Below, piece after piece: positions 23,587 through 53,604 of a stretch of 64,000 nt of DNA. Made by a program: the position numbers and the translations under genes. The DNA is taken from positions 17,946 to 81,945 of the forward strand of contig JAVBOY010000002.1 in assembly GCA_031550085.1 (NCBI GenBank). Reading direction: 5' to 3'. The notes beneath the pieces are model-generated. The model saw only the letters and a program-made list of their open reading frames with translations, was not told the origin of the DNA and did not search any database. Position 1 is the first letter of the stretch. Each line of letters begins with the position of its first letter. Origin of the DNA: Lentimicrobiaceae bacterium. GTDB lineage: Bacteria > Bacteroidota > Bacteroidia > Bacteroidales > UBA4417.

Positions 23587-24674
23587 ACGAAATTTTCTCC
23601 TTTTTCCGCACGTACGGTTTCCACAAACGTTTTGATCCGTTGTTCGTCCGACTTACGGCAAATCAGCAAGGTTCCCGCATCTTCCACCACGATGTAATCA
23701 TTCAACCCCTGAATAATGGCCACCTTTCCGTCGGGAAGGTTGATGATGCTGTTTTCCGTATCGAAGGTGAACACGCTGTCGCCGATCAGGGCGTTCCGGT
23801 GTTCGTTCTTTTCGCTGTTATCATATAAAGAGCCCCAGGTTCCCAAATCGCTCCAACCGAAATCGGCGGGAATCACATATACATTATCCGATTTTTCCAT
23901 AATGCCGTAATCGATCGAAATGCTTTGGCATTGCGAGTAAACGGTGCTGATGGCGGCGGCTTCGTTCGGGGTGTAAAATTCGTTTTTAATTTCGGAAAAT
24001 AAGGCGTTGACATCGGGCAAATGCCGGTCGAAGGCTTTCAAAATGCTTTGCAGCGACCAGATAAAAATTCCGGAATTCCACAGGAAATCGCCGCTTTGAA
24101 CGAATGAAACAGCCAGATCGTATTGCGGTTTTTCGGTGAAAGTGACCACCTTACGGGCGCAATTTTCAAATCCGAAAAGTTCGTTTTCCTTGAATTGAAT
24201 GTATCCATAACCTGTTTCGGGACGGCTGGGCTTGATGCCCAAAGTCAGCAGGCAATCGCTTATGGAAGAGGTTTCCAGTGCGGCCGTAAGTACTTGTGTG
24301 AAAACATCTTCTTTTAAAATGATGTGATCGGACGGAGCCACCACAATTTTTGCATCGGGATTAAGTTTTGCGATTTTGTGGCAGGCATACGCAATGCAAG
24401 GCGCCGTGTTGCGGCGCATGGGTTCGCAAAGCACATGGTCGGCCTTCATTTGCGGCAGTTGTTCCAGTACTTGGTCCTTGTACATTTCGTGGGTAACCAC
24501 AAAAATATTTTCAGGAGGACAAACGGTGGTCAAACGGCGGAAAGTTTGCTGGATCAATGTTTCGCCGGCACCAAAAATATCAATAAATTGCTTGGGGCGT
24601 GAAATGCGGCTCAAGGGCCAAAAGCGGGCGCCCACGCCACCGGCCATAATAATGCTATAGTGATTTTTATTCAT
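23583..24674 (-). CDS. manC: Mannose-1-phosphate guanylyltransferase (nucleotidyltransferase domain only)
   Basis: IIMAGGVGARFWPLSRISRPKQF; 363 aa with no C-terminal isomerase/cupin domain. Confidence 0.8.
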   Translation of the reverse strand: MNKNHYSIIMAGGVGARFWPLSRISRPKQFIDIFGAGETLIQQTFRRLTTVCPPENIFVVTHEMYKDQVLEQLPQMKADHVLCEPMRRNTAPCIAYACHKIAKLNPDAKIVVAPSDHIILKEDVFTQVLTAALETSSISDCLLTLGIKPSRPETGYGYIQFKENELFGFENCARKVVTFTEKPQYDLAVSFVQSGDFLWNSGIFIWSLQSILKAFDRHLPDVNALFSEIKNEFYTPNEAAAISTVYSQCQSISIDYGIMEKSDNVYVIPADFGWSDLGTWGSLYDNSEKNEHRNALIGDSVFTFDTENSIINLPDGKVAIIQGLNDYIVVEDAGTLLICRKSDEQRIKTFVETVRAEKGENFV

Positions 24675-24857
24675 GTAAAAAGTCTATAAAAAAGGATAAT
24701 ATGTTTTTGGATTCCATTCCGGCACAAAAATAGGAAAACAAAATCAATGTGCAAATGAATGCGGAAAGCACGGGGAAAGAAAGCGCGAACGTAGAAGGAT
24801 GTGTAGTCTTTTACAAATAAAAGATATTTTTTATTCGGATGATCTTTTCGTTTTTAT

Positions 24858-24865
24858 TATATTTG
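24858..24865 (+). promoter_or_regulatory. Candidate Bacteroidota -7 promoter box (TATATTTG)
   Basis: Exact match to TAnnTTTG. No convincing coding sequence lies downstream for about 580 nt. Confidence 0.3.
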
Positions 24866-25451
24866 CGACTTAAGAATAAGTGGTTTATACAATGAACCGT
24901 TATTTGCTACATACCGACTTTAGTACCTTTGCAACACAAAACTGCAACAAAGGTCATGTCATGCAAGATCCTATCATGGCTTGTTTTTTTCTATCCCCTC
25001 TCTACACCCAACCAGTTTTACTTTCATCTCTTTTTTTGATTAAAACAAGCATACTTGGCTTGTCTTCCTATATTAGCACATTTGACAAACATTTTTTACT
25101 GAGGAAAAACAATTTTGAACTGAAAAGCTCTGGGTGGCAATCGTTAACGAGTAGAATAGTAAACAATTCTGCACCCAGTGGCAAAAAATATTTTTGATGT
25201 ACCGAGCCTCGCAAGCTTGTGCACATAAAAAAAGCCTTCCTTGCAGGCTATAAATGCAAGGTAAAATAGTAGACGCTATACAAACCGGATTTACAAACCC
25301 AAATACAAGAAAGGCGTAGCAAAGGTACAAGAAATTGCCGGAAAAAGCAGTTTGCCTTGAAACGGCACGTGGTGATTGCATCCGTTGGTGCAGTTTTTAA
25401 GCAGTCCATGTAAATAAACGCGTATTTTTTTTACTTAAAAATCATTTTATT

Positions 25452-25667
25452 ATGAAAAAGATTAATAAAAAGCTGCAATTAAATAAGGAAACGATTGCAA
25501 GACTGGAAAATCCAGATAAGATTAAGGGTGGAGTAGAATTCACTAAAACCTGCACCGATACGAAAAGCAATGCTTCATATTGTTGTCCTGCTTCACAAGA
25601 ATGTTCCTTTGGAGCGACTCAGTGTAATCCGCTTACTTTTCAAGAGTATTGCTTCACAGATAATTAA
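25452..25667 (+). CDS. RiPP precursor peptide with a double-glycine leader and a Cys/Ser/Thr-rich (lanthipeptide-like) core
   Basis: Leader is MKKINKKLQLNKETIARLENPDKIKGG. The 44-aa core VEFTKTCTDTKSNASYCCPASQECSFGATQCNPLTFQEYCFTDN has 6 Cys and 11 Ser/Thr. The leader shape (MKK, KLxLNKETIxxL, GG) is the Bacteroidota natural-product precursor type. Confidence 0.75.
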   Translation: MKKINKKLQLNKETIARLENPDKIKGGVEFTKTCTDTKSNASYCCPASQECSFGATQCNPLTFQEYCFTDN

Positions 25668-25671
25668 TAAA

Positions 25672-25713
25672 AAGGGTTTCCCAATGGCACGATGCCATTG
25701 GGAAACCCTTTTT
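25672..25713 (+). terminator. Strong intrinsic terminator immediately after the precursor gene
   Basis: AAGGGTTTCCCAATGGCA at 25672-25689 pairs with TGCCATTGGGAAACCCTT at 25693-25710 (18-bp perfect stem, 3-nt loop), running into TTTTT. Confidence 0.85.
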
Positions 25714-25738
25714 CGAAACCATATAACAAATCCATATT

Positions 25739-27076
25739 ATGTCAAGTATCGGCTGCAAACTGTCACTTTTCGTTGTTTTAATAATATCCGCAAGTTTTGT
25801 CTACTCGCAGGGATTTGTCCAAGTTACAGGCTGTACGCTATTTTACGACTATCCTGTTGAAGGTGTAAATATTGCGATTGACGGACAGCCAGCTTTCGCA
25901 AAAACCGATTCGAAAGGATTTTTCAGCGTTCAGATTCCCAACAAGCCGCTTACGCTTGTGTTTTCGCATGTGAGCGGCAAAACCAAAAAAGTGAAAATAA
26001 CGGCTTCGATGTTGAGAAAACAAAACGCAGAAAATATTCTTAATTTGGGAAATATCGAAATTGAACTAAAGATTAACGAATTGGAAACCGTCCAAGTAGT
26101 TTCATCCCGAATTGAAAAAGCATACAACAAACCCGAAGCTTGGATATTGGATTACGAAATTGTAAATGGCAACTTGGCTTTGTTGCTTCTCGAAGACAAA
26201 AAACGGCTGATTCGTGCGGTAAATCTCAAAGACAGTACGCTTTTTGAAATACGCACCAAGAAAAAATACCGCAGTTTGTACAAAGATTTTGCAGGAAATT
26301 TACATGCTTTGGCAAGCGATTCGATTTTCCAGTTATTTCCTGATTTTTCGGATTGCTATGCTTATCCTATTTCACGTTACCACGAGCAATTGAAACATTG
26401 TGTCATTAATACGGACAATAGTATGTACCTGCAACTTTTTGGAGATTTCAACCAACAGGTAAACTATTTTAAAGTGGACAAAAAAAGTGGCAAACGCACT
26501 GTTTTAGCAACAGCTTTCGATGAACAGCAAGCCATCTACAATCAAGGGTTTTTATATTATGAAATTCTGGGAAAAAAACCAAAAACGAGCTATTCAAAAG
26601 GATTTATTTTTGACCCCGACCAAATTGACGAACTTTTGGATGCAAATAGGAGTTGGAAAATCCAATATTTTTCAAAAATACTCTGCCGCCCCACCTACCA
26701 GCCTCTAAAACGTATTGGTGATAATCTATATTTATTCAATCATTTGGAAAACAAAATTATCCGCTTTGATTTGGATGGAAACGAACTGGCTGAAATACCT
26801 GCCAATTACGCAAAAGTCGATAAATCGTGGGCAAACGAAATTATTGTAAACGAAGAAGAAACCCGTTGTTTTGCCAAATTCATAAACACCGGTATTGTTA
26901 CACTTAAAGAAATTGACTTGGAAACCGGAAGAATCAAAAATACATTCAAAATCGAACAACATATTTTTCCTGAAAAAATCCGGATTCAAAATAACGAAGT
27001 GTATTATCTCTACCGGGATTATAAAAAGCAAGACCGCAACGAACGCTGCTATTTGTGGAAACAAAAAATGGAATAA
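25739..27076 (+). CDS. Secreted hypothetical protein with a carboxypeptidase-regulatory-like (TonB-receptor-N-terminus-like) domain and an unknown C-terminal region of about 310 aa
   Basis: Signal peptide MSSIGCKLSLFVVLIISASFVYSQ. VTGCTLFYDYPVEGVNIAIDGQPAFAKTDSKGFFSVQIP resembles CarboxypepD_reg. I recognise nothing in the remainder. Confidence 0.6.
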   Translation: MSSIGCKLSLFVVLIISASFVYSQGFVQVTGCTLFYDYPVEGVNIAIDGQPAFAKTDSKGFFSVQIPNKPLTLVFSHVSGKTKKVKITASMLRKQNAENILNLGNIEIELKINELETVQVVSSRIEKAYNKPEAWILDYEIVNGNLALLLLEDKKRLIRAVNLKDSTLFEIRTKKKYRSLYKDFAGNLHALASDSIFQLFPDFSDCYAYPISRYHEQLKHCVINTDNSMYLQLFGDFNQQVNYFKVDKKSGKRTVLATAFDEQQAIYNQGFLYYEILGKKPKTSYSKGFIFDPDQIDELLDANRSWKIQYFSKILCRPTYQPLKRIGDNLYLFNHLENKIIRFDLDGNELAEIPANYAKVDKSWANEIIVNEEETRCFAKFINTGIVTLKEIDLETGRIKNTFKIEQHIFPEKIRIQNNEVYYLYRDYKKQDRNERCYLWKQKME

Positions 27077-27084
27077 ATGAATGA

Positions 27085-27336
27085 TGTTGCAGCATACCAA
27101 ACCAAGCTGGGTACAATCGCCGCTTACCTGAGTTCAGACAGGTTGCCGACTATTGGTTTTCCGAAACTCTGAAAATGGCACGGTTTGACGATGGGTTGGC
27201 CGGGTATAAGGCCTTGCATACCGAGATGGAAAACGAATACGGCATCTTGGAAGGTGTTGCAGGAATCGGTTTGGCTCTGCTATCCTATGTTACTGAAACG
27301 GAGCCCACGTGGGATGAGTGCTTATTGCTAAGCTAA
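27085..27336 (+). pseudogene. Remnant of a LanC-like lanthionine cyclase gene (C-terminal ~83 codons only)
   Basis: The open frame has no start and reads ...RQVADYWFSETLKMARFDDGLAGYKALHTEMENEYGILEGVAGIGLALLSYVTETEPTWDECLLLS*. The G-hydrophobic-x-G-x-AGIGLALL...W...LLL ending is the usual LanC C-terminus. The frame is closed by TGA at 27082-27084 just after the preceding gene. Confidence 0.55.
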
Positions 27337-27468
27337 AAAAGCAGAAAACGACATGACTGAAACAGAACGAACTCCGCAAAAACGACAAACTACAAGCCTT
27401 TCGGCTCCTTTGTGTTTCGTACCATGCACTTCTTTTGCGGAGTTTGCAAAGAATAGCGACGACTTAAT

Positions 27469-28128
27469 TTATCCCTGTCCTGTTTCCGGAATTATTTCCA
27501 TTTGCCCTGAAACCAAGTAAAGCCGTCCGGTTTCAACGCATTGGCATTTGAAACGTGTGCGCTGTTTTTCCAATTTCAAAAATTGCCTTCCCGACAAGTT
27601 TTTAAAAACAGCGTTTTCGGCTATATCTGCAACCACATAGCGTGCGCCTTTGCCATCGAGTTTGTGCAATATCGTTAGAAGTTTTGGATGACGGTGCGAA
27701 GCGCTAACAGCAGCCGATAAGTTATTTTGCAAAAATGAATTTAATTCCGGTGGCAAAATCTGTTTTTCAACAATGGCATGCAACATGCCGCTGAATATTT
27801 CTTTCCACTCGGATCCGTGTGGTTTTACAGCGTTTTTGTAATTGTTCCAAACCAACAAATGAGCCAGCTCGTGCATAAACACAAGAAAAAAAGTATATTT
27901 ACCCAAATCGCCATTCATGACGATTTTGTGTGGCAGCTTTGTATTTCTAATGTTGGGAATAAAAGTCCCTAACTGCACTTTGCGCGGATTGCCGATGTGC
28001 AAACGGAAAAATGATTTTCGAAAGCAAGAAACCACTATTTCGATAGTTTCCAAAGGAAAATATTTTTCGAGGATTTTTATATCGGAGTCTGTCATCCTTT
28101 TCAACAGTTTTTTACACAATAAACCCAT
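27469..28128 (-). CDS. SprT-like zinc metalloprotease domain protein
   Basis: Contains the HExxH motif in FLVFMHELAHLLVW and a C-terminal Cys-containing tail (FKCQCVETG). The start is uncertain: ATG at 28128 or 28095, and the track TTG at 28134. Confidence 0.65.
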   Translation of the reverse strand: MGLLCKKLLKRMTDSDIKILEKYFPLETIEIVVSCFRKSFFRLHIGNPRKVQLGTFIPNIRNTKLPHKIVMNGDLGKYTFFLVFMHELAHLLVWNNYKNAVKPHGSEWKEIFSGMLHAIVEKQILPPELNSFLQNNLSAAVSASHRHPKLLTILHKLDGKGARYVVADIAENAVFKNLSGRQFLKLEKQRTRFKCQCVETGRLYLVSGQMEIIPETGQG

Positions 28129-28330
28129 TTGCAAACGGCAAAGGTATTTTTATTTACTTTATGTTTTTTAATGCCTCAAAATGAAATTATATGCCATAAA
28201 AAAGTCTTCTATTCTCAAAAGAATCAAGGAGTTTTGTCAAACTTGTCCTTAAAAAAACTAGTTGCGCGAAGCAATCAAAATTTCGAGCATTTTGATAACG
28301 CAATTTTCACATTGCCAAGATTTTTTTTAA

Positions 28331-28359
28331 TTTGCATATCAAATTTGTTTTTATATTTG
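28331..28359 (+). promoter_or_regulatory. Candidate Bacteroidota promoter for the ABC pair (-33 TTTG, -7 TATATTTG)
   Basis: TTTG lies at 28331-28334 and TATATTTG at 28352-28359, with a 17-nt spacer. It sits about 100 nt upstream of the ATG at 28459. Confidence 0.4.
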
Positions 28360-28458
28360 GCCGTGCAATTCAGATAAAATCATAAACAAAGAAGCGATTA
28401 CACGTTTTTGGAGCACATAAAATAGGAATAAAATTCCTTAATTAACATAATAGTTATT

Positions 28459-29391
28459 ATGAATGATGCTTGGCAGATAGAAACAAAAAACCTGAGTTTC
28501 CAATACAATCGTAGAATAGTTGTTGATAGCATCAACCTATGTGTTCCAAAGGGAAGTATTTACGGATACCTTGGAAAAAACGGCGCTGGAAAAACCACTA
28601 CTCTTAAATTGCTGTTGGGCTTGTTACCAAGCAATCCGGATACTATTTTTTTTAATGGAAAAAATTTCGCAAAAGAATCCGTAAAAACACATTATAGTAT
28701 TGGGAGTTTGGTAGAATCTCCTGCTTTATATGCCCATTTGACAGCTTTTGAGCAACTAAAATATGTTGATTATTTCTTCAAAAAAGGAAAGCAACGTATT
28801 TTGGAAGTGCTTGATTGGGTTGGGTTGCAAAATGATAAAAATAAGAAAATCAACCACTTTTCAACAGGAATGAAACAGCGTTTGGCGCTTGCTGTAGCTT
28901 TATTCCACGATCCAGAGATGCTCATTCTCGATGAACCGATAAATGGGCTTGACCCAAACGGAATTTACGAAATACGTGAACTTCTTCTGCGCATCAACAA
29001 ACAACAAAATAGAACCATTTTGTTTTCAAGCCATATTTTAAGCGAAGTTGAAAAAATATGCACACATATTGGCATTTTGGATCATGGGAAATTATTGTTT
29101 CAAGGAGACATTAAGAACTTGCCTTCTTCCACGCTTCGCCGGAAGGTCTGTGTGCGTACAAACAAAGCTGAATACGCTGTAGAAGTGTGTGTGGCTAACA
29201 GCATTCATGCAATCTTGGAAAATAGCAATGAATTTTATTTTTTCCCTGCAAACGATTTAGATTTCCATAAAACGATTTGCCTATTAACGAGCAACTCCGT
29301 GGAAATATACAGCACAAATACGCTTTCTGATAGTTTAGAATCCATATACATTGATCTTGTTAGCAAAAAAGAACATGGTACAGCAAACTAA
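28459..29391 (+). CDS. ABC transporter ATP-binding protein, ABC-2 / lantibiotic-protection type
   Basis: Walker A GKNGAGKTT, signature FSTGMKQRL and Walker B MLILDEP. Overlaps the permease gene that follows. Confidence 0.85.
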   Translation: MNDAWQIETKNLSFQYNRRIVVDSINLCVPKGSIYGYLGKNGAGKTTTLKLLLGLLPSNPDTIFFNGKNFAKESVKTHYSIGSLVESPALYAHLTAFEQLKYVDYFFKKGKQRILEVLDWVGLQNDKNKKINHFSTGMKQRLALAVALFHDPEMLILDEPINGLDPNGIYEIRELLLRINKQQNRTILFSSHILSEVEKICTHIGILDHGKLLFQGDIKNLPSSTLRRKVCVRTNKAEYAVEVCVANSIHAILENSNEFYFFPANDLDFHKTICLLTSNSVEIYSTNTLSDSLESIYIDLVSKKEHGTAN

Positions 29392-30136
29392 TTTTTGGGA
29401 TACTTTTTGTGCAGAATTCTACAAATCAAGGAAAAATTTGGGATTTTATATTTTAATAATTTTTCCGGTATTTACGACCTCGATAGTTTTTTTGTACTAC
29501 TGCCACCATGTAAATAATTTTGACCCCGAATTAAATCATTGGATGAATTTTACGCGGTACCTATTTTTATTTTACATGTTTATTTATCCTATGGCTGTTT
29601 CGTTTTCGGCATATTCTGTTATGCACATTGAGTATAAAAATAATGCTATCAAACATTTGTTTACATTGCCGGTTCCAAAACCAATATTTTACTTGTCAAA
29701 AATTGCCCTACTCTTTGCCGTCATTATTTTTTCTTTACTGCTTTGCTACGGTTTATTGATTCTATCCGGAAATCTGTTGAACTATTTTTACCCCCAATTA
29801 TTATTTCACAGTTATGATATACGGCTGGTTCTTAGTGTACTATTTGTTAAGAGCTTATTTTCATTGTTGTGCGTTGCTCTTGTGCAGTTGCTTTTGTGCA
29901 TGTTGTTTCGCAGTTTTGTTGTTTCATTGAGTTTTGCTTTGTTTTTTACCATTTTTGGATTTGTTGCCAGCAAATGGGAATACGCATTTCTAAACCCTTA
30001 TAGCGGAGTCTTGTCAGCCTTTTTATCTTTTTTCAAACAAAATTCGCTTATTTTTCAAAAAGATACCATTTTTGCGATATGTACCACAATTATTACCTTG
30101 GTACTAGGATATTTCATTTTCAGAAAATTGAAATAA
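29375..30136 (+). CDS. ABC-2 type permease (6 TM), immunity-type partner of the preceding ATPase
   Basis: Highly hydrophobic, about 253 aa. The ATG at 29375 overlaps the ATPase stop by 17 nt. The track start at 29351 is a TTG. Confidence 0.7.
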   Translation: MVQQTNFWDTFCAEFYKSRKNLGFYILIIFPVFTTSIVFLYYCHHVNNFDPELNHWMNFTRYLFLFYMFIYPMAVSFSAYSVMHIEYKNNAIKHLFTLPVPKPIFYLSKIALLFAVIIFSLLLCYGLLILSGNLLNYFYPQLLFHSYDIRLVLSVLFVKSLFSLLCVALVQLLLCMLFRSFVVSLSFALFFTIFGFVASKWEYAFLNPYSGVLSAFLSFFKQNSLIFQKDTIFAICTTIITLVLGYFIFRKLK

Positions 30137-30270
30137 GGAATTACTAAAAAGTATAGATAATAATTTCGTACTCTTCTGATTATAAGTATAATTCAAAATG
30201 ATCTCTGCCAAAATTTACCAATTCCTATCGGAGAAATTCTAGTTTTCCCATTACAAAAAAGTAAAGAATC

Positions 30271-31509
30271 ATGAAAAACAATTTAATTTTAATTTCATTG
30301 CTTATTCTGTTTCTTGCCGCAGTACCCGTTCAAGATAATAACAATAAACCAATTTTTTCGGAAAGCGAGGAATATTTTATCCCTTTTCAAATAATTGATA
30401 GCCATTTGTATGTAACAGTCAAAATCAATAACAAAGTAACTGCTTTGCTTTCTGTTGATAATGGTTGTCCCGATCTCCATTTAACTGAATCGTTTGCAAA
30501 AAAACATGCAGAAGCGTTAGGACTCACATTTTATCCTGATATGAAATCTGTAAGCTATTTCCCTGGTAGTCCAAATCAAAAATGCTATATTGCACAAGGA
30601 AACTTGTTTTTCCAAGTAAAAGATTCTATTTTCGAGAATCAAACAGAATCTTTATATTATTCAAATCATGACATTATAAAAAATCATTGTTCTATTCTGT
30701 CTTCCGGAGACATTCTACAATTTTTACCTGCTGAAGCTGCCGGAATTATTCCATTAAAGTGTTTGGTAAAGAACAATTTAATTCGAATCAATTTTCGAGA
30801 CAATCGCATAGAATTTCCCTCCCGAATTGATTCTACGCTGAAAAAAGAATATAACGAATATGATTACAAAACTGTGAACCGACTTCAGGTAGTTCAATAC
30901 CCCATAACTTTTTCGGATACCAAAGGAATGCAAAAAACATTTTCATTCAAAACTGTTTTTGATTTAGGTTTCGGAGGAAATTTTAGTTTTCTTAATACAA
31001 AGATTGTCTCGCTGGCAAAACAATTTGAAAGCAAAAACTATGAATCTTCATTCCGTTTTTTTGACGAAATAATAGCCGGAAAAGATAAACTAAAATTGAA
31101 CTACATAAATATTGTTTCATCCAATACAAATATGCCTTTTGACATGCTTGTTGGAATAAAAATTTTGTCCAACTACGATATTTATTTTGATTATAAAAAT
31201 TCGAAAATTTACACCAAAGCCTTATCGAAAGATAAGTTTTCACTATCCCCTTCATCAGCTCCGGGCTTTTTTACTGTAACAAAAAAGAGAGATAATGCTT
31301 ATATTCAATGTCATATTACAGCCATAAACCCGGCTACAAGTAAATTTTCATATAAACTGTACGACGAGATTTTAGCAGTTGATAATGTGTACTTACAAAT
31401 GCTGTCTTTGGATAGTGCAAAAAGATTGCTGGTAAATAGAGATGAGATTCAGATCCTGTTAATAAAAAGAAATCAAGATACGCTATTATTAAAGCGTGAC
31501 CGAGAATAA
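30271..31509 (+). CDS. Secreted protein with two retropepsin-like (clan AA aspartyl protease) half-domains and a C-terminal PDZ-like domain
   Basis: Has a signal peptide. HLYVTVKINNKVTALLSVDNGCPDLHLTESFAKKH and KTFSFKTVFDLGFGGNFSFL match the retropepsin active-site-loop pattern, with DTG replaced by DNG and DLG. The C-terminal ITAINPATSKFSYKLYDEILAVDNV...ILLIKRNQDTLLL is PDZ-like. Confidence 0.55.
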   Translation: MKNNLILISLLILFLAAVPVQDNNNKPIFSESEEYFIPFQIIDSHLYVTVKINNKVTALLSVDNGCPDLHLTESFAKKHAEALGLTFYPDMKSVSYFPGSPNQKCYIAQGNLFFQVKDSIFENQTESLYYSNHDIIKNHCSILSSGDILQFLPAEAAGIIPLKCLVKNNLIRINFRDNRIEFPSRIDSTLKKEYNEYDYKTVNRLQVVQYPITFSDTKGMQKTFSFKTVFDLGFGGNFSFLNTKIVSLAKQFESKNYESSFRFFDEIIAGKDKLKLNYINIVSSNTNMPFDMLVGIKILSNYDIYFDYKNSKIYTKALSKDKFSLSPSSAPGFFTVTKKRDNAYIQCHITAINPATSKFSYKLYDEILAVDNVYLQMLSLDSAKRLLVNRDEIQILLIKRNQDTLLLKRDRE

Positions 31510-31619
31510 AAAGCTGCACTTGTCCGTTAGAATTCAGGATAGATAAACTTTTTGAACTTAATTTTGATTGACTTGGAATCACGTAAGTAATTTATTTATA
31601 GTAATTTTAGTTTTCTTAT

Positions 31620-32120
31620 TAGTTTAGATGGCAACCGCGAGTACCACTCGCACCGTGTAATAAAAAACATCCGCCTGCTCAAAGACCGGCATCCCGATTA
31701 TTTCGAAAAGCGTGTAAACTTTAATGCCGTGCTCACAACCGCAGCACTTATGAGGATGTATACCACTTTATCAAAGATGAATTTGGTAAAATCGCCAATA
31801 TCACTGCGCTAAACGATATCGGCATTCGCGATGATAAGAAGGAGTTGTTTATGGCAACCTACCGCAACCCCAACCAAAGCCTGATGCAATCGGAACATTA
31901 CGATGAAATAGAAAAGGAAATGTTTATCAAATCGGGCAAAAAAACCAAAACATCACCGCCGGAGAAACTTTGCTGACCATTGTTCCCAACGATTCGGCAA
32001 CAGTTGGACTTATCACAAGAAATGCAAGGCTCAGCCGAAATTATTACCCATGACTTGCGCCTACTCGATCGCTTCCTAAACCCTATAAAATCGGTATTGA
32101 AAAGGCAAAAGCGTAGTTAG
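31620..32120 (+). pseudogene. Frame-broken gene remnants; the last part resembles the C-terminus of a HlyD-family (bacteriocin-export accessory) protein
   Basis: Hand translation in shifting frames gives ...ITAGETLLTIVPNDSATVGLIT... then, in another frame, EMQGSAEIITHDLRLLDRFLNPIKSVLKRQKRS*. No ORF of 60 aa or more occurs here. Confidence 0.45.
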
Positions 32121-32185
32121 TGAAAAGTTGACAATGGACAATAAGTTTTTGCAGAAAGCAGAAGGCAAAAGCAGTTGATTTAAGC

Positions 32186-32227
32186 AAAAAATCCTTCGAA
32201 TACCGAAACCGGCATTCGAAGGATTTT
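32186..32227 (-). terminator. Intrinsic terminator downstream of mutB
   Basis: AAAATCCTTCGAAT at 32187-32201 pairs with ATTCGAAGGATTTT at 32214-32227. A U-run follows on the minus strand. Confidence 0.75.
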
Positions 32228-32246
32228 CAATCTTAAAAAGAAAAAA

Positions 32247-34385
32247 CTATTTCCGCGATTCAATTAAAATTTCCAACATTTTAATCGCGCAATCGGGAAT
32301 TTTAGTTCCGGGACCAAATACGGCTACCGCTCCCGAATCATACAGGAATTGGTAATCCTGTGCCGGAATTACGCCTCCCACAATGACCATAATGTCCTCG
32401 CGGCCCAGTTTTTTTAATTCTTCAATGACTTGCGGCACCAACGTTTTGTGTCCGGCAGCCAAACTGGAAACGCCTAGAATATGAACGTCGTTTTCCACCG
32501 CCTGGCGTGCGGCTTCAGCCGGTGTTTGGAACAAGGGACCGATGTCCACGTCGAAGCCGATATCGGCATAGCCGGTTGCAACTACTTTGGCGCCTCGGTC
32601 GTGCCCGTCCTGCCCCATCTTGGCAATCATGATGCGCGGGCGGCGGCCTTCCAATTCGGCAAACTGATCGGCCATTTGGCAGGCTTTCTTAAAGTCGTCG
32701 TCGTTTGCCGACTCGCCTGAATAAACTCCTGATATGGATCGTATCACAGCTTTATACCTTCCGTAAACTTTTTCTAATGCAGAACTGATTTCTCCCAACG
32801 AAGCGCGTTTGCGGGCCGCGTCAATGGCTAATTCCAGAAGATTTCCTTCGTTGGTTTCGGCGCAACGGGTCAATGCGGCCAAAACAGCATCGACGTCGGC
32901 CTGGTTGCGGTTGGCGCGCAATTGTTTCAAGCGTTCGAGCTGCGCCAAACGAACGGCCGTATTGTCCACTTCCAAAATTTCGAGCGGATCTTCTTTTTCC
33001 AGGCGATATTTGTTCACGCCCACAATGGTTTCCTTGCCTGCATCAATGCGTGCCTGTTTGCGGGCAGCCGCTTCTTCGATGCGCATTTTGGGAATTCCGG
33101 TTTCGATGGCTTTGGCCATACCGCCCAATTCTTCCACTTCCTGAATCAAGGCCCAGGCTTTGTGCGCAATTTCGTGGGTCAGACTTTCCACATAATAGGA
33201 ACCGGCCCACGGATCGACCACACGGCAGATGTTGGTTTCTTCCTGTAAATAAATTTGCGTGTTCCGGGCAATACGGGCCGAAAAATCGGTAGGTAATGCA
33301 ATGGCTTCGTCCAATGCATTGGTATGCAACGATTGGGTGTGTCCCAATGCAGCGCCCAGGGCTTCGATACAAGTGCGGGTGACGTTGTTGAACGGGTCTT
33401 GTTCCGTCAAGCTCCAGCCCGAAGTTTGCGAGTGGGTACGCAACGCCATGCTCTTGGGATCTTTGGGATTGAACTGGCGGACAATTTTAGCCCAAAGCAA
33501 ACGGGCGGCACGCATTTTGGCGATTTCCATAAAATGGTTCATGCCGATGGCCCAGAAAAACGACAAGCGCGGCGCAAACGAATCGATCGGAATGCCGGCT
33601 TCAATGCCTTTGCGAAGGTATTCCAATCCGTCGGCCAACGTGTAGGCCAATTCGATGTCGGCGGTAGCTCCGGCTTCTTGCATGTGGTAGCCCGAAATGG
33701 AAATGGAATTGAATTTCTTCATGTTTTTGGAAGTAAATTCAAAAATGTCGGCAATGATTTTCATGGAAGGAATGGGCGGATAGATGTAGGTGTTCCGCAC
33801 CATAAATTCCTTCAAAATATCGTTTTGGATGGTTCCGCTCAATTTATCCATGGACACGCCTTGTTCTTCGGCGGCTACAATGTAAAAGGCCAAAATCGGC
33901 AACACGGCGCCGTTCATGGTCATGGAAACCGACATTTTGTCCAACGGAATCTGGTCGAACAAAATTTTCATATCCAGAATAGAATCAATCGCCACACCGG
34001 CTTTTCCTACGTCGCCAACCACACGTTCGTGGTCGGAATCGTATCCTCGGTGGGTTGCCAGGTCAAACGCAACGGAAAGCCCCATTTGGCCGGCGGCCAA
34101 GTTGCGACGGTAAAAAGCGTTCGATTCCTCGGCAGTGGAAAATCCTGCATATTGGCGGATTGTCCAGGGTTTCATAACATACATGGTGCTGTACGGTCCG
34201 CGTAAAAACGGGGTAATTCCGGCAGCGTATTGCAAGTGTTCCATGTTTTTAAGGTCGTCGGCCGTGTAAACGGCTTTTACCTCTATTTGCTCGTTGGTCA
34301 TCCAGTTTGCACCATCACCGTTGGCTTGCGAGCCTTCGGACTGTACCGGAGCTTTGTAATCCAGATGTTTAAAATCGGGTCGCAT
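32247..34385 (-). CDS. mutB: Methylmalonyl-CoA mutase large (alpha) subunit
   Basis: 712 aa with a TIM-barrel substrate domain and a C-terminal B12-binding domain carrying [10 protein letters not shown] (DxHxxG). Confidence 0.93.
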
Positions 34386-46551: not shown

Positions 46552-49500
46552 TTATTGTTTTATCACCTTTGCTATTTTTCCGTCTACTTTTAAAATATAC
46601 GAACCTTTCGCAAGCGATGATAGATCTAAAGTCGCTTTGGTTTCTCCCACATTTGTCCGCTCAATCAACAACCTTCCGATTACATCGTAAACTTGAATGG
46701 TGTTGATTTTCGACTTTTCATTGTCGATGGTGATGCGGCCGGTTGTAGGATTCGGGTAAACTTGCAGTTTCGCCAAACGTGCCTCGTCGACACCATCGAT
46801 GATGAACATGGCTTGTATCACATGGTTTGTGATTACATTGTCAAACGTATACGTCGAAACCGCGCCTACGCTCGTACCGTCAACCATGACTCTGTCGATC
46901 TGGTAAAGCGGGCTGGGCGTAATGGTAAATGTTTTGCTTTCGCCCGAATTTACCGTAATGGTTCCAACAGGGGAAATGGTTCCTCCGATACCGGCGGATG
47001 CCACAATGGTATATACGCCTGCAACAAATTCGGCTTCAATGGTATGATTGGCTTGTACATTGGTAAATGTATAGGTGCCGCTCAAAACGGAACCCGGAAC
47101 ATTCACACCGTCAACCAGTATCGATTTAATCACATAACCCGGATCCGCCGTAATGGTGAAAATCTTGTCGTTTCCTTCCGGTACCGTTACATCACCCGAT
47201 GGGGTAATGGTTCCATTGGGACCTGCCGTTGCTGTGATGATGTAGGAAGTACCTTCTTCAAATACGGCAACATACTCTGCTTCTTCGGTTACAGGGAAAA
47301 TATACGGGTTTGAGGTAGAAACGGCTACGCCGGCTTTTTGCCATTCTTTCAAACGGTACCCGGGTACGGGAGTCGCCTTCAGGATTGCATTATCATTCGG
47401 ATTGAACAGGCCTCCCCCGACAACATATCCCATATCGGAATTATCGCTTCTTACGGTAACCGAGAAAGTCTTATTTTGTAAAGATCTTGTGTCAAAGTTA
47501 AAATGCTGAGCTGCGGACACATAAGTTGTTCCTAGACCATAAGCCTGAATCCAGTTCATGAAAATTCCATAGTCATTGGATCTAAAGGAATAGGATTTAG
47601 TATCATAGCATTCATTAGCATAACGTACCGAAGCAACTAGCGAATTAAATTCTTTATCAAACAGGAGAATATCCAGGTTCTCGGTTATATATGAACTACC
47701 GCCGGAATACGAATCAAACATCAAATACAAAGTATCGCTGTGATATATCAGCCCTTTGGTCGATATCAATGTTTGGTACGACGGTTCTACCAAATCTTTC
47801 CCCTCGTCCCCCCATTTCAGACTCCCGTCTTTGCTTATAACTTGTCCCTTCAAGAAATAGTAAACAGAACCACCGGCTACAGTCGCAGCAGTAGCAAAAG
47901 CCAAGGTATTTTCGTCGGAATTTTCGTTACGGACAACAGCCGGCCATCCGTACAAGCGAGGACGTTGCGGGTCGTTGGATACCGCTACTCCGGTGGATCC
48001 GATTTGAGGCTCTAAATTATCATCCAGATATTGCACATAATAAGTTCCCCTGAAAAGCAAACTGGAATAGCAAACCCATAAACCGGATTGCAGAGAGTTT
48101 TCCGTATCAAACAATAATATAGAAGCTCCATCCATTCCCGATTCCGTCACCGTTACCGGGCTCGACAAGGTAGGCGTAAGATCTGAATCGAACACTTGCA
48201 AATACAGTGAACCATTCGCTCCTCCGTAAGTCACAAACAAACGATCTTGCTTATCAAATTCCATCGTAGAAACGTTTTGGTTGACGGTTTTGATAATCTG
48301 GCCGGTAGCCTTGTTTATTTTGTGAATTTTGCCCGTATTTGTGGCCATATAAATATTGTTGCGACTGTCTGTCCTGAGAAATGTGGCGACTACCAAGCCG
48401 ATTGCTCCCGGAGAAATCACAACGCCTTCATTACCAAATAATTGTTGGCCTGTTGGAGATGTTTTCCAGATACGTAATTCTCCGAGAGTCTGTTGGCTGG
48501 CATTCCGGTACATATTCGTATACCCCACGATGAGGTTTCCTTCCTTATCGGCTTCAGAGGTATTTACGATAGCAAATGTCAAGCGGTTGTCGGAGATTTG
48601 GATTCCTTCACTTGCAAACTGTTGATGTCCGGCTTGATTCAAATATTGGGCAAACTCATTGAAGTTCCCACCTTTGTTTTGAGAGAAAGCAACAAACAAA
48701 TTACCGTCTTTGGTCAAACTGGCTCTTCCGCCTCCGACGTTGGTCAGACCATCGGAAGCTAGTACCGGGTAATCCACATTGCCGTATCCCGGCCGAATGA
48801 TCATGTAGGCAGTGTCGTTGCCATGGTTCATGTCCTCGCCCAAAGAGGTATAGGCCTTCAAATAATGATCGCCGGGAGCCGACAGATCAAGCGTGTGCGT
48901 GAACGTGTGGCGGTATACGGAATCTGGCCGTAGCGGCGTAGAGAAAGTAACCATGTCTGAAAGAAGGTTCATGCCGTCTGCCAAACAGGAAACTTGGGCT
49001 CCATCGAGCGGATTTGCCCCATAATTCCTAATATCAACAATAACGGTTGTTGTGGAGGTACATTGCAGACTCATTACCGGAGACACGATGCGCACCACAC
49101 CCAAGTCTTTATTAATAAATGTGACACTCTTCGTCACCATATTGTTTGCAGGAACTTCATCTCCCGGGTAAGAAGCGGTAACCGATAATACATAGGTTTT
49201 TACCTGCGACATATCAATCGTGTTGGGGAAGGTATAAATAACCGTGCCTTTGATCGGCAGGTTAACCGCTCCTCTCAGCAGTTCTACCCCATCAACTTTG
49301 CAAGACAGAGGCACTGTCAACGGGATGGAGGTGTTGTTTCGCAGCGAAACCGTTACACTTTCCGTCCCTGTTAACGGACCTGTTTCCGGCGCAATAATGG
49401 CAATCATTTCAACATCCAATGTTTCGTTGGTCGTGTAAACAGTTGTCGTTAACGTATCATTTAAACGGTTTACATCTCCGGCACAAGTCACATAGGTTTT

Positions 49501-52500
49501 GAAGTTATACTGGCCCGGAACCAACATATTTGCTTTTTGCGCAAATGTGTACATATAGGTTACATTTGGAGCGACAGAAGCAGTTATTGTTTCTGTAACC
49601 GTTGTTCCATTTATTTTGTAGGCAATCGGGAAATTTGAAAGCGTAGTATTTCCTAAGTTTTCGATCGAAACCGTCACATCGAGCGCTGCATTTATTTTAC
49701 CGGAAATCGGCGCAATAAAGCTAGCCATCTTCATATCGGTTTTCGGCAAACAAGTTACCGTAACACGGGCCGTGTCATTGGCCCGGTTTGCGTCAAATGT
49801 CACATCCGTATAAAATTCGATATTATAAGTTTGCGGAGTATACAAATCAACTTCTTCCAAAACGAAATGGTACGTTTGATTCACGCCGATGTGAACTTGG
49901 TAGACAGAATCACGAAGCATGGCTCCGTTTAATTTGCATTTAATCGGTAATTCAAAGATGTCATCTTGTCCGACATTCGTAATGTTTACGACAATCGAAT
50001 CGGAGGCCGAAAATACGGCATTCGCGGTCGGATAAACTAACTGAACGGCGGCATTCGGCAATCCTGTCACTTCGCTTACGGAAAATGAATTGGCAATATT
50101 CGCAATGTTGGTTACCCCATTCACCCGGAACGCAAACACATAATTGTCCGTTTGCGGAATGGTGACGTAAGCGATAAAGGGTTGGTCCTCAGAAACACGC
50201 TTGGTATTGGTATAGGATTTTATCAACGAAAGGTTTTCCACCTGGTTTCCTTTGCCGTACATCAAATCAATATTGAACGGCTTGTTGTAAGCGGATGCCA
50301 AAGCTTCAAACGAAATACGGTAGGTTTTTCCGCTTTGCAACGCCATTTGTTTGGTCATCAAATAATCGTTGGCAGCATTTGTGGAATTGTAGGCAAATCC
50401 GTTGATCGTTCCTGTTACTTTTTGCCACAAAACGGCATCCTTGTTTTGATCGAATGTCAACCAATCGTTTACGGTTGTGAAATCAATAATTTCATACGGC
50501 ACTGTGGCCCTGGGCACATTTTGAACAACCGATGTCAACGTATCGTCCAGACGGTTGTCATCGCTTCCCGGGTGTGAAACCCACACTTTTACATTTTCAT
50601 TTCCGGTTCCGGCAAATACGGCTTTGGCCGGGAAATAGAAAATATTTTGAGCGCCGGCAGCCAAGGTTCCAAAATTAGCCGTTACGGTAGTCCCATTGTT
50701 TATCTTATAATTGATCGAATAGGAGGTTACCGGGTTTTTTCCCAAATTTTTAACAATCGTGCCCAGGGGTAGGCTGTCCAAACCGGCTACTTGCGTTCCC
50801 GGTAGAATAACCTTTGTCAATGCCATATTATCATCATAGACTTGGTAAAAATTGGGGTTTTTGAAAAGAACATTACATTTCAATCCTCCTGAAATGGCGG
50901 GGACATAAAAAGCAAAATAATAATCCCCGTCTGCAGTCGGTATAAATGTATCCGTATAGGTCGTCAATGCGTTATTTGCCGTCGTAATACTGATATTCCG
51001 GATGTTGTCCTGTACCAAGGTGAATGTATTTCCCGATTTGGTATAAACTTTCACCACTAAATTAGCCGTTTGTGCTGCCGAACGCCCTACCTGGTAGGTG
51101 AACTCACACATCTGACCGGCCTTAATGTTGATGGGTCTTGAATAAAGTGTTGCGTCAAGAAGAGATGGATTGAATGTACTTCCCGTGTACTGCCAACGGG
51201 CATCCGCCGCTAAAACATTGACCGTCCAGCGGTCGGTTTCCCAAAAACGGTCCTCTTTCGTATAGGTTGCAGTACCTGTCCCTAATGTAGCATTGTAAGG
51301 CAAGGTGGTCACTTTGGGTGTCAGGGTGGATATAATGGTATCGTTGACTGCGATGTTGTCTCCAGCCAGTGATACCCATGTTTTCAAATTGTACGTTTTC
51401 AGCGCGGACATATCAGCGGCAGCCGTGAACGTATAATCGATGGATTCACCCACATTCAATGCGGCTGAAACCGTTTCTTGAACAACCGTGCCTCCGTCGA
51501 GCTGGTAGAAAGCTTTGACGCTATTGGCCTCAATGGGAGTAGCCAATCCTGCGTTAGCTACTTTTAATTTAATGGCTTCCGTCACGCTGTAACGGGGAGT
51601 CAAATCTACCGGAGAAACCAAAGAAGCTGCCGATGCATCTAGGTCGGACACTTCGCGAACCGAAGCGCTCAGTAAATCGAATTCCAGACTTCTTGCTTTC
51701 GATAAATACCGGAATACAAAGTAGTAAGACGTATCCTGGATAGGAGTTACGTACACTTTTTGGTTCCTACAATTGCTATTGTTGATGTCGTTTTTGTAAA
51801 ATACCGGAAGCCCTTCACGGCTCAAGGTATCAAAACGAGTCGCCAAATAAATTTGCATGGCATTTACATCGGCCGCGTTGGTACTGTTGGTCAACGCGTC
51901 AAATGCCAATTCGTATTTTTTGCCTGCTTTCAAATGGATGGGACGCGAAAACAAGGGTACATCTGCATCAAATGTTTTTGAAGCTCCGTTAATCGAAAGG
52001 GCTGAGGGGTAAAGAGTCGTTCCAACCACCCAATAAGGATAGGTGGCTCTGGCACCCATTTCAATTTGTTGCCAGGCGTCAAAGTCTTGTCCGGTGCTAA
52101 CCCAGGCGGCCGTATAAGGTGTGCCCGCCATTTTGTTGGCAATGGTATAGGTAAGCTTGTCGTTGCTCACATTCTGGTCTCCTGCCAGTACCGTTTGCAC
52201 CTGCAGGGTATAATTCGTGCGGTAACCGTCCGTATTGGCCAGTGTACTAAATGTATATTCAGCCGTTGCATTGGGAGCCAACGGTTGGGGCGGTGTAAAC
52301 GTTTCGGTAACAAGTTGGCTGCCGGGAGTCAACGTATATTTTAAATTGATGGAACTTACCGGGGTACTGCCCAAATTGGTAAAGTTAATCGTCACGGGCG
52401 TTTTGAAGTAAGCGCCGTCGTTGGTAGCAGTACCGCCCGAAAGGTCTTTTACAAAGTTCAGTTTCACATCTTTAGACCAACGTTTGGATGCAAAAACTCC

Positions 52501-53139
52501 GTCAATCGTAAGTTCTGCATTTGAAGACCTTATATTCGGCGAATTGACGTAAAAGCGCAATTTAAAACTCTTATTATCGTAAGTAGATGGTAAATAAACC
52601 TGAATAGCATACCAATCAAGGGTCATGCTTCCTACTCCGTTCAATGAGGTTTGTGTGTATGCAAATCCTGTCGGTTGCCCGTCGCTACGCCAAAGCTCGT
52701 CCCAAGTTTCACCGCCATCGGCAGATGCCTGAAAAGCAAAATATCCGAATCCGGTTGGAAAAGGGACTACCGACGGGTTAAACACCGAAAACCCAACACA
52801 CACATTGGTTTTCACATTCACGATATCCGGAGATGTAATGGTTCCGACATACCCCATATTGGATGTAAATGGGAGCGCCAGGGAATACGTACTTGTCGGA
52901 TCCGCATTTGTGAAATTTTTCCCTGCAGGAGCATACGTATTTGTCGTTTTCCACAGACTCGTCGTCGGAGTTTGTGTACCGCCCGACGCATAAGTATTTC
53001 CCGTTTGGGTCCAGTTGGTAGCCGCAATCGTTGCTACATCAAAACCCTGCTTGTAAAAAGGGGTTCCGAGGTAGGGAACTTGCGCCCAAATGTTTGCAGC
53101 GCAAAAAAGTAAGATTAAAGAAAGTAATCTGTTCTTCAT
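46552..53139 (-). CDS. Giant secreted surface protein (~2195 aa) with a T9SS C-terminal sorting domain
   Basis: Signal peptide MKNRLLSLILLFCAANIWAQ starts at the ATG at 53139 (the track TTG at 53223 is less likely). There are seven CARDB-like Ig modules, each ending xND[TK], and three InlB-B-repeat-like modules (ATAGPNGTITPSGDVTVPEGNDKIFTITADPGYVIKSILVDG). The C-terminal LQVYPNPTTGRITI...GSYILKVDGKIAKVIKQ is a Por/T9SS CTD. Confidence 0.88.
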   Translation of the reverse strand: MKNRLLSLILLFCAANIWAQVPYLGTPFYKQGFDVATIAATNWTQTGNTYASGGTQTPTTSLWKTTNTYAPAGKNFTNADPTSTYSLALPFTSNMGYVGTITSPDIVNVKTNVCVGFSVFNPSVVPFPTGFGYFAFQASADGGETWDELWRSDGQPTGFAYTQTSLNGVGSMTLDWYAIQVYLPSTYDNKSFKLRFYVNSPNIRSSNAELTIDGVFASKRWSKDVKLNFVKDLSGGTATNDGAYFKTPVTINFTNLGSTPVSSINLKYTLTPGSQLVTETFTPPQPLAPNATAEYTFSTLANTDGYRTNYTLQVQTVLAGDQNVSNDKLTYTIANKMAGTPYTAAWVSTGQDFDAWQQIEMGARATYPYWVVGTTLYPSALSINGASKTFDADVPLFSRPIHLKAGKKYELAFDALTNSTNAADVNAMQIYLATRFDTLSREGLPVFYKNDINNSNCRNQKVYVTPIQDTSYYFVFRYLSKARSLEFDLLSASVREVSDLDASAASLVSPVDLTPRYSVTEAIKLKVANAGLATPIEANSVKAFYQLDGGTVVQETVSAALNVGESIDYTFTAAADMSALKTYNLKTWVSLAGDNIAVNDTIISTLTPKVTTLPYNATLGTGTATYTKEDRFWETDRWTVNVLAADARWQYTGSTFNPSLLDATLYSRPINIKAGQMCEFTYQVGRSAAQTANLVVKVYTKSGNTFTLVQDNIRNISITTANNALTTYTDTFIPTADGDYYFAFYVPAISGGLKCNVLFKNPNFYQVYDDNMALTKVILPGTQVAGLDSLPLGTIVKNLGKNPVTSYSINYKINNGTTVTANFGTLAAGAQNIFYFPAKAVFAGTGNENVKVWVSHPGSDDNRLDDTLTSVVQNVPRATVPYEIIDFTTVNDWLTFDQNKDAVLWQKVTGTINGFAYNSTNAANDYLMTKQMALQSGKTYRISFEALASAYNKPFNIDLMYGKGNQVENLSLIKSYTNTKRVSEDQPFIAYVTIPQTDNYVFAFRVNGVTNIANIANSFSVSEVTGLPNAAVQLVYPTANAVFSASDSIVVNITNVGQDDIFELPIKCKLNGAMLRDSVYQVHIGVNQTYHFVLEEVDLYTPQTYNIEFYTDVTFDANRANDTARVTVTCLPKTDMKMASFIAPISGKINAALDVTVSIENLGNTTLSNFPIAYKINGTTVTETITASVAPNVTYMYTFAQKANMLVPGQYNFKTYVTCAGDVNRLNDTLTTTVYTTNETLDVEMIAIIAPETGPLTGTESVTVSLRNNTSIPLTVPLSCKVDGVELLRGAVNLPIKGTVIYTFPNTIDMSQVKTYVLSVTASYPGDEVPANNMVTKSVTFINKDLGVVRIVSPVMSLQCTSTTTVIVDIRNYGANPLDGAQVSCLADGMNLLSDMVTFSTPLRPDSVYRHTFTHTLDLSAPGDHYLKAYTSLGEDMNHGNDTAYMIIRPGYGNVDYPVLASDGLTNVGGGRASLTKDGNLFVAFSQNKGGNFNEFAQYLNQAGHQQFASEGIQISDNRLTFAIVNTSEADKEGNLIVGYTNMYRNASQQTLGELRIWKTSPTGQQLFGNEGVVISPGAIGLVVATFLRTDSRNNIYMATNTGKIHKINKATGQIIKTVNQNVSTMEFDKQDRLFVTYGGANGSLYLQVFDSDLTPTLSSPVTVTESGMDGASILLFDTENSLQSGLWVCYSSLLFRGTYYVQYLDDNLEPQIGSTGVAVSNDPQRPRLYGWPAVVRNENSDENTLAFATAATVAGGSVYYFLKGQVISKDGSLKWGDEGKDLVEPSYQTLISTKGLIYHSDTLYLMFDSYSGGSSYITENLDILLFDKEFNSLVASVRYANECYDTKSYSFRSNDYGIFMNWIQAYGLGTTYVSAAQHFNFDTRSLQNKTFSVTVRSDNSDMGYVVGGGLFNPNDNAILKATPVPGYRLKEWQKAGVAVSTSNPYIFPVTEEAEYVAVFEEGTSYIITATAGPNGTITPSGDVTVPEGNDKIFTITADPGYVIKSILVDGVNVPGSVLSGTYTFTNVQANHTIEAEFVAGVYTIVASAGIGGTISPVGTITVNSGESKTFTITPSPLYQIDRVMVDGTSVGAVSTYTFDNVITNHVIQAMFIIDGVDEARLAKLQVYPNPTTGRITIDNEKSKINTIQVYDVIGRLLIERTNVGETKATLDLSSLAKGSYILKVDGKIAKVIKQ

Positions 53140-53604
53140 AAAAGTGTAATTTATTTTTCGAAAATTAATTTTCAGTAAAAAAATGAGGGTACGAAGGTAA
53201 CTACATTTGGTATACCGGTGCAAATAATGCCTATATATAAAGTGTCACAAAAAAAAATACACACAACTGGTAACCAATTGCTTATTTATTTAATTTTGTT
53301 TCTTTGGAAATTTGCTCAACTGAAAAAGAAATTTTAACTTTGAAATTGCAAGATTTACCTTAAAAACGATCTCAATTCAAAATTCGAACAACGTATATTC
53401 AGAAAGTATACCCTAAAAATCAGTTTTTTTTTACTATACAGTTTAAACAAGTTCTACTTAAAAAAGTTGACTGGAATTTCGAAAAATATTTAATTAATTA
53501 AAAAAAATGTAATGACTTAAAATTTAATTTTTTATTGTTTTTCGTTTCTTAATTTTGGCATTTCAACTTATGTGTATGACTTTTTGTCCGTTTGTTTTGC
53601 AGTT

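Follow-up and report, generated by a model that had tools for sequence, protein, structure and literature searches.

A class I lanthipeptide precursor gene, probably stranded among the remnants of its biosynthetic cluster, in a Lentimicrobiaceae bacterium

Introduction

Can an intact gene for a lanthipeptide precursor still lead to a product when the biosynthetic genes next to it have decayed? This question is raised by a short open reading frame (ORF) of a Lentimicrobiaceae bacterium. The ORF is located on a stretch of 64,000 nucleotides of contig JAVBOY010000002.1 (positions 17,946 to 81,945; GenBank assembly GCA_031550085.1), which was analysed as a whole and is called the window in the following. 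Orphan precursors and immunity genes that outlive the biosynthetic genes are a familiar phenomenon. In the Bacteroidota, the pinensins and the PedA peptides of Pedobacter lusitanus belong to the class I group of lanthipeptides with a Gly-Gly leader. For class I precursors (LanA) of Bacteroidetes, a leader with the motif LxLxKx5L and a GG site has been described, and their clusters frequently include a gene for a C39 protease (Walker et al. 2020, PMC7268733).

A preliminary description of the DNA had taken the ORF for an intact precursor of a peptide synthesized by ribosomes and modified after translation (RiPP) that is followed by a dedicated terminator and has degraded cluster enzymes nearby. 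Here, we describe the leader family of this precursor, the gene order of related loci, the remnants downstream of the ORF and the hairpin that follows it. Judged by its sequence, the ORF is a true LanA gene of class I and of the Bacteroidota type. It is probably a stranded relic of a gutted class I cluster, accompanied by an ABC-2-type transporter that was possibly kept against related lanthipeptides.

Results

The ORF encodes a LanA with a known type of leader and a core of its own

The precursor peptide consists of the leader MKKINKKLQLNKETIARLENPDKIKGG and the core VEFTKTCTDTKSNASYCCPASQECSFGATQCNPLTFQEYCFTDN. The leader ends with Gly-Gly at residues 26-27, and the 44 residues of the core include 6 Cys and 11 Ser/Thr; these numbers and the length of 71 residues had been given in the preliminary description and were reproduced from the sequence. 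Translation ends at a TAA codon (25665-25667), and another TAA comes next in frame, giving tandem stops.

Residues 1-19 matched the NCBIfam model NF038153 (lant_leader_L1a, 'class I lanthipeptide') with 28.1 bits at a curated cutoff of 22 bits (E 1.7e-6). The motif LxLxKx5L is made up of L8, L10, K12 and L18, with G26-G27 at the end. The proposed double-glycine RiPP leader of Bacteroidota shape thus passed the comparison with precursor models that had been suggested for it. Pfam gave no match for the precursor peptide. When 1.84 billion cluster representatives were scanned in full with HMMER, the peptide itself was retrieved and, in addition, nine others (E 5e-5 to 7e-4), all of which match within the leader region. 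Six of these nine are short peptides that share the leader MKK..KKLQLNKETIA.L...DKI.GG and have Cys-rich, unrelated cores; leader identity to peptides adjoining LanBC clusters is 57-70%. The core had zero homologues among the 1.84 billion representatives, only the leader has relatives. With the leader conserved and the core unrelated across the matches, the core is unique and the leader is a conserved signature of the family. When the precursor peptide was the query of a word-indexed search through 5.8 billion proteins, the self-match alone was returned, and a search of contigs returned a 1.7-kb Logan contig identical to the window as sole match. A core orthologue against which frameshifts or a ratio of nonsynonymous to synonymous substitutions (dN/dS) could be read was not among the matches.

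Every Cys of the core has a Ser or Thr 2-5 residues upstream, as described before, where this spacing had been read as the one expected for lanthionine rings. The pattern is indeed present at each Cys, but among shuffled cores of the same composition, 8.4% have it as well. This is not significant, and the spacing was rejected as evidence of a lanthionine topology.

Related precursors lie at LanC-LanB clusters

A genome scan with an alignment of the leader gave 12 loci, and a scan of metagenome contigs with the LanC fragment of the window (see below) gave 17 more, so that a total of 29 loci (designated L and a number) was available. The genome loci are mostly titled Bacteroidales, Bacteroidetes, Pedobacter, Mucilaginibacter, Gynurincola or Chryseosolibacter. 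From ORF maps and Pfam matches, a recurring order emerged: precursor(s) - (secreted protein) - LanC - LanB - PCAT - HlyD, and the 17 metagenome loci, L019 among them, have the same gene order. LanC was identified by PF05147, LanB, full or split, by PF04738 / PF14028, and PCAT, a Peptidase_C39-ABC exporter, by PF03412, PF00664 and PF00005; HlyD was likewise confirmed with Pfam. Peptides with the same leader hence adjoin LanC, LanB, a C39-peptidase ABC exporter and HlyD, and what is left of LanC, LanB and HlyD in the window is located downstream of the precursor, which bears out its earlier designation as lanthipeptide-like.

Complete LanC, LanB, PCAT and HlyD clusters are present in L008 and L010, both titled 'MAG: Bacteroidales bacterium'. 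A survey of 2023 that applied BAGEL4 to 1,136 Bacteroidales genomes reported not a single LanB (PMC10352776); uncultured Bacteroidales appear to differ from the genomes of that survey in having LanB.

The biosynthetic genes of the window are reduced to remnants

Remnants were mapped by tblastn of all ORFs of the related loci against the whole window and by searching six-frame fragments with profile hidden Markov models (HMMs) of the relatives. The coordinates are compiled in Table 1. The lanC remnant is 62% identical to residues 315-391 and 319-396 of LanC from L010 and L008, respectively (tblastn, E about 1e-27), and 70% identical to LanC of L018 and L019. Its open fragment of 83 residues matched PF05147 (LANC_like) with 25 bits (gathering threshold, GA, 23.2) at profile positions 313-350 of 350. 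Compared to the full-length LanC of L019, the GLCHG zinc-ligand motif and all N-terminal sequence are lost at the breakpoint, which abuts the stop of a gene for a secreted protein of 445 residues. The lanB stub follows 43 nt past the lanC stop, in the syntenic position; the corresponding N-termini are KETSYNPFEIFVFRT in L008 and IAYQPFNTFVFRT in L019. With an HMM of the LanB N-terminus from 16 relatives, the stub was the best six-frame match of the window (E 3.5e-4, compared to 0.57 for the second-best). The nearest ATG (27353) is in another frame than the stub, and the homology ends past FVFRT. Of HlyD, two C-terminal pieces were found with an HMM from five cluster relatives, one at 31907-32050 (E 4.8e-5, HMM positions 307-329) and one at 31977-32117 (E 6.7e-14, HMM positions 396-431). 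As these pieces are in separate frames and at separate HMM positions, the HlyD remnant has an internal deletion and a frameshift.

The remnants of LanC, LanB and HlyD are colinear with the canonical order of the relatives. The degradation of cluster enzymes that had been noticed before could thus be assigned to individual genes. Neither Pfam nor tblastn revealed a PCAT or Peptidase_C39, or another LanB or LanC, within the 64-kb window. What makes up a functional class I cluster, namely a whole LanB (PF04738 and PF14028), a LanC with its Cys...Cys-His ligands and PCAT/HlyD, is missing at the locus.

The window shares with the class I LanAs of the Bacteroidota (NF038153; PMC7268733) the leader motif, the GG site, a core rich in Cys, Ser and Thr and, ancestrally, the synteny with genes for LanC, LanB (split or full), a C39-peptidase ABC exporter and HlyD. 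It differs from them in that LanB, LanC, PCAT and HlyD are deleted or truncated, that the core has no relative and that no product is predicted locally. L019 (metagenome contig Ga0099364_10000034), L010 and L008 come closest: leader type, gene order, a hairpin past the precursor and a slot for a secreted protein are shared, and their LanC proteins are the ones to which the LanC remnant of the window is 62-70% identical. These loci have kept the full LanC, LanB (N- and C-terminal parts), PCAT and HlyD, with a Peptidase_S41 gene in the slot, whereas the window has a CarboxypepD_reg/beta-propeller protein in this slot and, where the relatives have lanB to PCAT, an SprT-like gene, the ABC-2 genes and an ORFan.

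A strong hairpin follows the precursor gene

The hairpin begins 2 nt past the precursor stop. Its stem is composed of A5 and a G/C-rich core of 16 nt, and the 3' arm ends in T5. It corresponds to the stem of 18 bp with a T-run noted earlier at 5 nt past the stop, for which three A-T pairs had been left out of the 21 bp. The RNA folds with -34.4 kcal/mol, compared to -10.9 +/- 2.5 kcal/mol for dinucleotide shuffles (z = -9.3), and none of 200 shuffles was as stable. It is the only perfect hairpin of at least 12 bp within the window. A repeated or mobile element was considered and rejected, since the sequence is not repeated elsewhere. Rfam gave nothing at the gathering threshold in the whole window, and near the ORF only chance-level, microRNA-like matches on the hairpin; a scan with generic sigma-70 and terminator consensus sequences left the precursor region at background level.

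To see whether relatives have such a structure, the 90 nt past each of their precursors were folded. Long, mostly perfect stems were found in L002, L006-L010, L012, L016, L019 and L029, for example with 19 bp in L002, 16-18 bp in L006, 30 or more bp in L008, 14 bp in L010, 13 bp in L019 and 15 bp in L029. The stems have no sequence in common. A perfect stem of at least 12 bp lies at most 100 nt downstream of 7 out of 23 precursors, compared to 5 out of 286 other ORFs of the same DNA (Mann-Whitney p = 4.7e-5), and the next gene usually begins 30-170 nt beyond the hairpin. Judged by this enrichment, the hairpin is conserved as an element of the precursor module.

In the single-promoter RiPP operon of sagA, a terminator is documented after the structural gene, and a terminator controls bacteriocin expression in the case of LsbB (PMC4786598). 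By analogy, the hairpin of the window may attenuate transcription or stabilise the short precursor mRNA. Inverted repeats at nisA-nisB and epiA-epiB are comparable terminators or attenuators of structural genes. All of these have in common with the window a G/C-rich stem with a T-run 3' of the precursor and a close next gene. They differ from it in that the downstream enzyme genes of the window are gone, and the hairpins here and in the Bacteroidota relatives are known from sequence. A role in setting the ratio of precursor to enzymes is now without a local target, because LanB, LanC and the leader-cleaving exporter are gone.

Other genes and composition of the island

Table 1 Features of the locus and of the window (lengths in aa, amino acids; nt, nucleotides)
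Feature	Position	Strand	Description
lanA-type precursor gene	25452-25667	+	71 aa, ATG start; leader residues 1-27 (25452-25532); core 44 aa (25533-25664)
Terminator-/attenuator-like hairpin	25669-25713	+	Arms 25669-25689 and 25693-25713, 21 perfect bp, 3-nt loop
445-aa secreted protein	25739-27076	+	Signal peptide, CarboxypepD_reg-like (PF13715), beta-propeller; slot between precursor and lanC
lanC remnant	27085-27336 (homology 27112-27333)	+	Last ~78 codons and native stop (...EPTWDECLLLS, stop)
lanB 5' stub	27361-27453 (homology 27379-27423)	+	KTTNYKPFGSFVFRT matches LanB N-terminus, ~15 codons
SprT-like zinc metalloprotease	27469-28134	-	PF10263 26.3 bits vs GA 25.6; NF003421 partial; at expected lanB place
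ABC transporter ATPase	28459-29391	+	PF00005; best family TIGR03740 lantibiotic-protection (LanF-like), 231 bits vs cutoff 309.75
ABC-2 type permease	29351-30136	+	PF12730 ABC2_membrane_4 56.9 bits; TIGR03733 MutG 20.7 bits vs cutoff 117.2; candidate for immunity or efflux
412-aa ORFan	30271-31509	+	N-terminal signal-like segment; G+C content 0.31
HlyD-family (membrane-fusion) remnant	31907-32117	+	Two C-terminal pieces in different frames, ~65 residues missing between
MacAB-like set	55622-56302; 57042-59354; 59677-62019; 62265-63518	-	ABC ATPase; two MacB_PCD/FtsX permeases; intact HlyD-family protein

Across 25-32 kb, the G+C content is 0.30-0.38, compared to 0.44-0.49 in the flanks; the kilobase of the SprT-like gene is an exception, since this gene has a host-genome-like G+C content of 0.43, unlike the island. 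The stretch lies between a manC-like gene and the gene of a methylmalonyl-CoA mutase (manC...mutB interval, 24674-32247). This fits an acquired island that decayed later. No tRNA was found by a tRNA scan.

The ATPase and the permease have a counterpart between precursor and LanC in a relative: in L009, an ATPase 47% identical and an ABC-2 permease 27% identical to the pair of the window are located there. Therefore, a transporter of this sort can rightfully belong to these clusters as an accessory, plausibly with a role in immunity. With the LanFEG immunity transporters (TIGR03740/TIGR03733) the pair has in common an ATPase and an ABC-2 permease inside a lanthipeptide island, as well as the best family of the ATPase. 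Both scores of the window pair are below the curated cutoffs, with the generic models PF00005 and PF12730 as the only ones passed, and there is a single permease gene, so that the pair is a candidate for immunity. We do not file it as a member of LanFEG; it may work in a LanFE-like manner.

The protein of 445 residues was modelled with a mean predicted local distance difference test score (pLDDT) of 84.8, and its PDB matches are generic propellers only. Its family comprises 32 proteins; those of L003-L005 have housekeeping genes as neighbours, and none of the 29 lanthipeptide loci has a homologue. As a secreted CarboxypepD_reg protein with a generic propeller and homologues in unrelated contexts, it was rejected as a new modifying enzyme. 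The ORFan of 412 residues had no homologue but itself in 5.8 billion proteins and no Pfam or NCBIfam match. Its PDZ-like similarities in the PDB (residues ~314-403) are insignificant, and the single-sequence model (pLDDT 33) is unusable.

The slot behind the precursor hairpin holds other proteins in the relatives. A secreted protein or lipoprotein of the Peptidase_S41 (tail-specific protease) family follows directly in L019 (6869-9040), L010 (10333-11340) and L006 (1197-3884); it is a recurrent, uncharacterised accessory of several intact Bacteroidota clusters. In L007 (9998-12724) and L028 (7155-10240), which have the closest leader relatives (NPDxI[YF]GG), the precursor is followed by a lipoprotein with Big_2 and FGE-sulfatase (formylglycine-generating-enzyme-like) domains and then by LanC. 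These modules have housekeeping flanks and no LanB or PCAT within 10 kb. A module of FGE-like protein, LanC and B12-radical-SAM protein lies directly upstream of a full cluster in L022 (35-4448). The FGE/LanC modules could be a distinct, undescribed RiPP architecture with LanC, or another form of decay.

Upstream of the precursor, 777 bp separate it from manC (24675-25451). They contain a small terminator-like hairpin on the minus strand (25249-25233), and neither a credible ORF nor an Rfam match was seen in this interval, nor any recognisable gene remnant, be it of an XRE-type regulator or of other genes that lie upstream of the relatives' precursors. A TAnnTTTG promoter motif was not found within 250 nt upstream of the precursor. 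In three relatives, a conserved non-coding element of ~130 nt with hairpin-like segments abuts the precursor upstream (L002, 360-510; L007, 9846-9997; L028, 7003-7154) and ends with ...GGCAAAGTGGAAATA. It had no match in Rfam, and the upstream region of the window has no clear counterpart.

Farther away, the window encodes a protein of 2,223 residues that combines CARDB and InlB B-repeat-like domains with a C-terminal sorting domain of the type IX secretion system (46552-53223), which supports the Bacteroidota origin of the DNA. The MacAB-like efflux set on the minus strand (55622-63518) is unrelated to the lanthipeptide remnants.

Discussion

The most probable history of the locus is that of a complete operon that was gutted. 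The ancestral operon had the order precursor - hairpin - (secreted protein) - lanC - lanB - PCAT - hlyD. By analogy to the known attenuators, the strong hairpin most likely ended or stabilised most of the transcripts, and limited read-through would have fed the enzyme genes. In precursors of this type, LanB and LanC recognise the leader, and a C39-peptidase ABC transporter removes it upon export. Accordingly, LanB would have dehydrated Ser and Thr of the core, LanC would have joined the six Cys as thioethers, and PCAT would have cut after G27 during export. Deletions and replacements then reduced lanC, lanB and hlyD and removed the exporter with its peptidase. Since the local enzymes and the exporter are deleted, maturation by anything encoded nearby would be impossible, and the locally encoded proteins presumably cannot dehydrate, cyclise, cleave or export the precursor today. 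The precursor itself is most likely a relic that was not yet struck by a disabling mutation. The intact ABC-2 pair was plausibly retained as immunity of the lantibiotic-protection type, which would make the strain an immune non-producer.

That the ORF shows no decay had been pointed out before. Its frame is indeed intact, but this is no proof of selection, because the nonfunctional lanC fragment of 83 codons is also stop-free and still 62-70% identical to its intact relatives. For the same reason, the deletions look recent relative to decay by point mutations.

Some points weigh against a relic. The analysis covered 64 kb, and a set of LanB, LanC and PCAT elsewhere in the genome could act in trans. 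The contig of L022, with its LanC-only module beside a full cluster, makes shared enzymes conceivable. A flawless ORF with start codon, tandem stops and hairpin is also what purifying selection would leave behind. In addition, the immunity proposed for the ABC-2 pair is based on family matches below their cutoffs and on a single syntenic case. The precursor could still be functional if an intact set of LanB, LanC and PCAT, encoded elsewhere in the genome, modified, cleaved and exported it in trans; the local genes would then have decayed as redundant. This would agree well with the flawless state of ORF, leader motif, GG site and hairpin, and highly conserved leaders in front of hypervariable cores would allow one enzyme set to serve many precursors. 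The position of the LanC-only module of L022, immediately upstream of the full cluster, and the precursors of L007 and L028, which have a LanC and neither LanB nor PCAT within 10 kb, suggest distributed arrangements. On the other side, there is no second cluster within 64 kb, and the equally long, stop-free lanC remnant demonstrates that intactness needs no selection. We regard maturation in trans as unlikely. Quite unlikely is also the more general view that class I lanthipeptide biosynthesis is distributed in uncultured Bacteroidales, with hypervariable cores served by one leader and one enzyme set in trans.

The six Cys of the core would also be in line with a peptide that works without lanthionines, a disulfide-rich secreted bacteriocin or signal that depends on the ABC-2 transporter and/or the proteins of 445 and 412 residues. 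The same low-GC island does encode two secreted proteins along with an intact ABC transporter, and the gene of the 445-residue protein begins 26 nt past the hairpin, so that its transcription may rely on read-through from the promoter of the precursor. However, the ABC-2 pair is without a C39 peptidase domain and thus unable to cleave a GG leader; the family of the 445-residue protein is found in unrelated contexts, and in none of the examined loci is it a neighbour of such precursors; and the 412-residue protein is an ORFan. Moreover, both proteins are apparently exported, so that they would not act on a cytoplasmic precursor. Taken with these objections, a peptide of this kind is very improbable. 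A chance ORF next to an unrelated terminator might be suspected from a core without homologues and a Ser/Thr-Cys spacing that is not significant. The passed curated leader HMM, the leader identity of 57-70% to peptides beside LanBC clusters and the position exactly upstream of lanC, lanB and hlyD remnants in canonical order speak against it, and with leader HMM, leader relatives and remnants in hand this reading is effectively refuted.

What is new in this locus is the sequence-unique core; the class I LanA with GG leader is of a known Bacteroidota type, here in a decayed cluster. As the locus stands, its practical value is modest. If maturation in trans were true, the core would be a new scaffold, and the product a lanthipeptide whose core is related to no known one. 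As a stranded relic, the locus is a clean and mappable example of the decay of a lanthipeptide cluster, in which the precursor, its hairpin and an immunity-like transporter survive while the large genes are deleted or replaced. RiPP mining by precursor or leader only would over-count producers at such loci, and PGAP would label the ORF 'class I lanthipeptide'. Finally, and in contrast to surveys of cultured genomes, the locus adds to the evidence for true LanB/LanC clusters that are, or once were, present in uncultured Bacteroidales.

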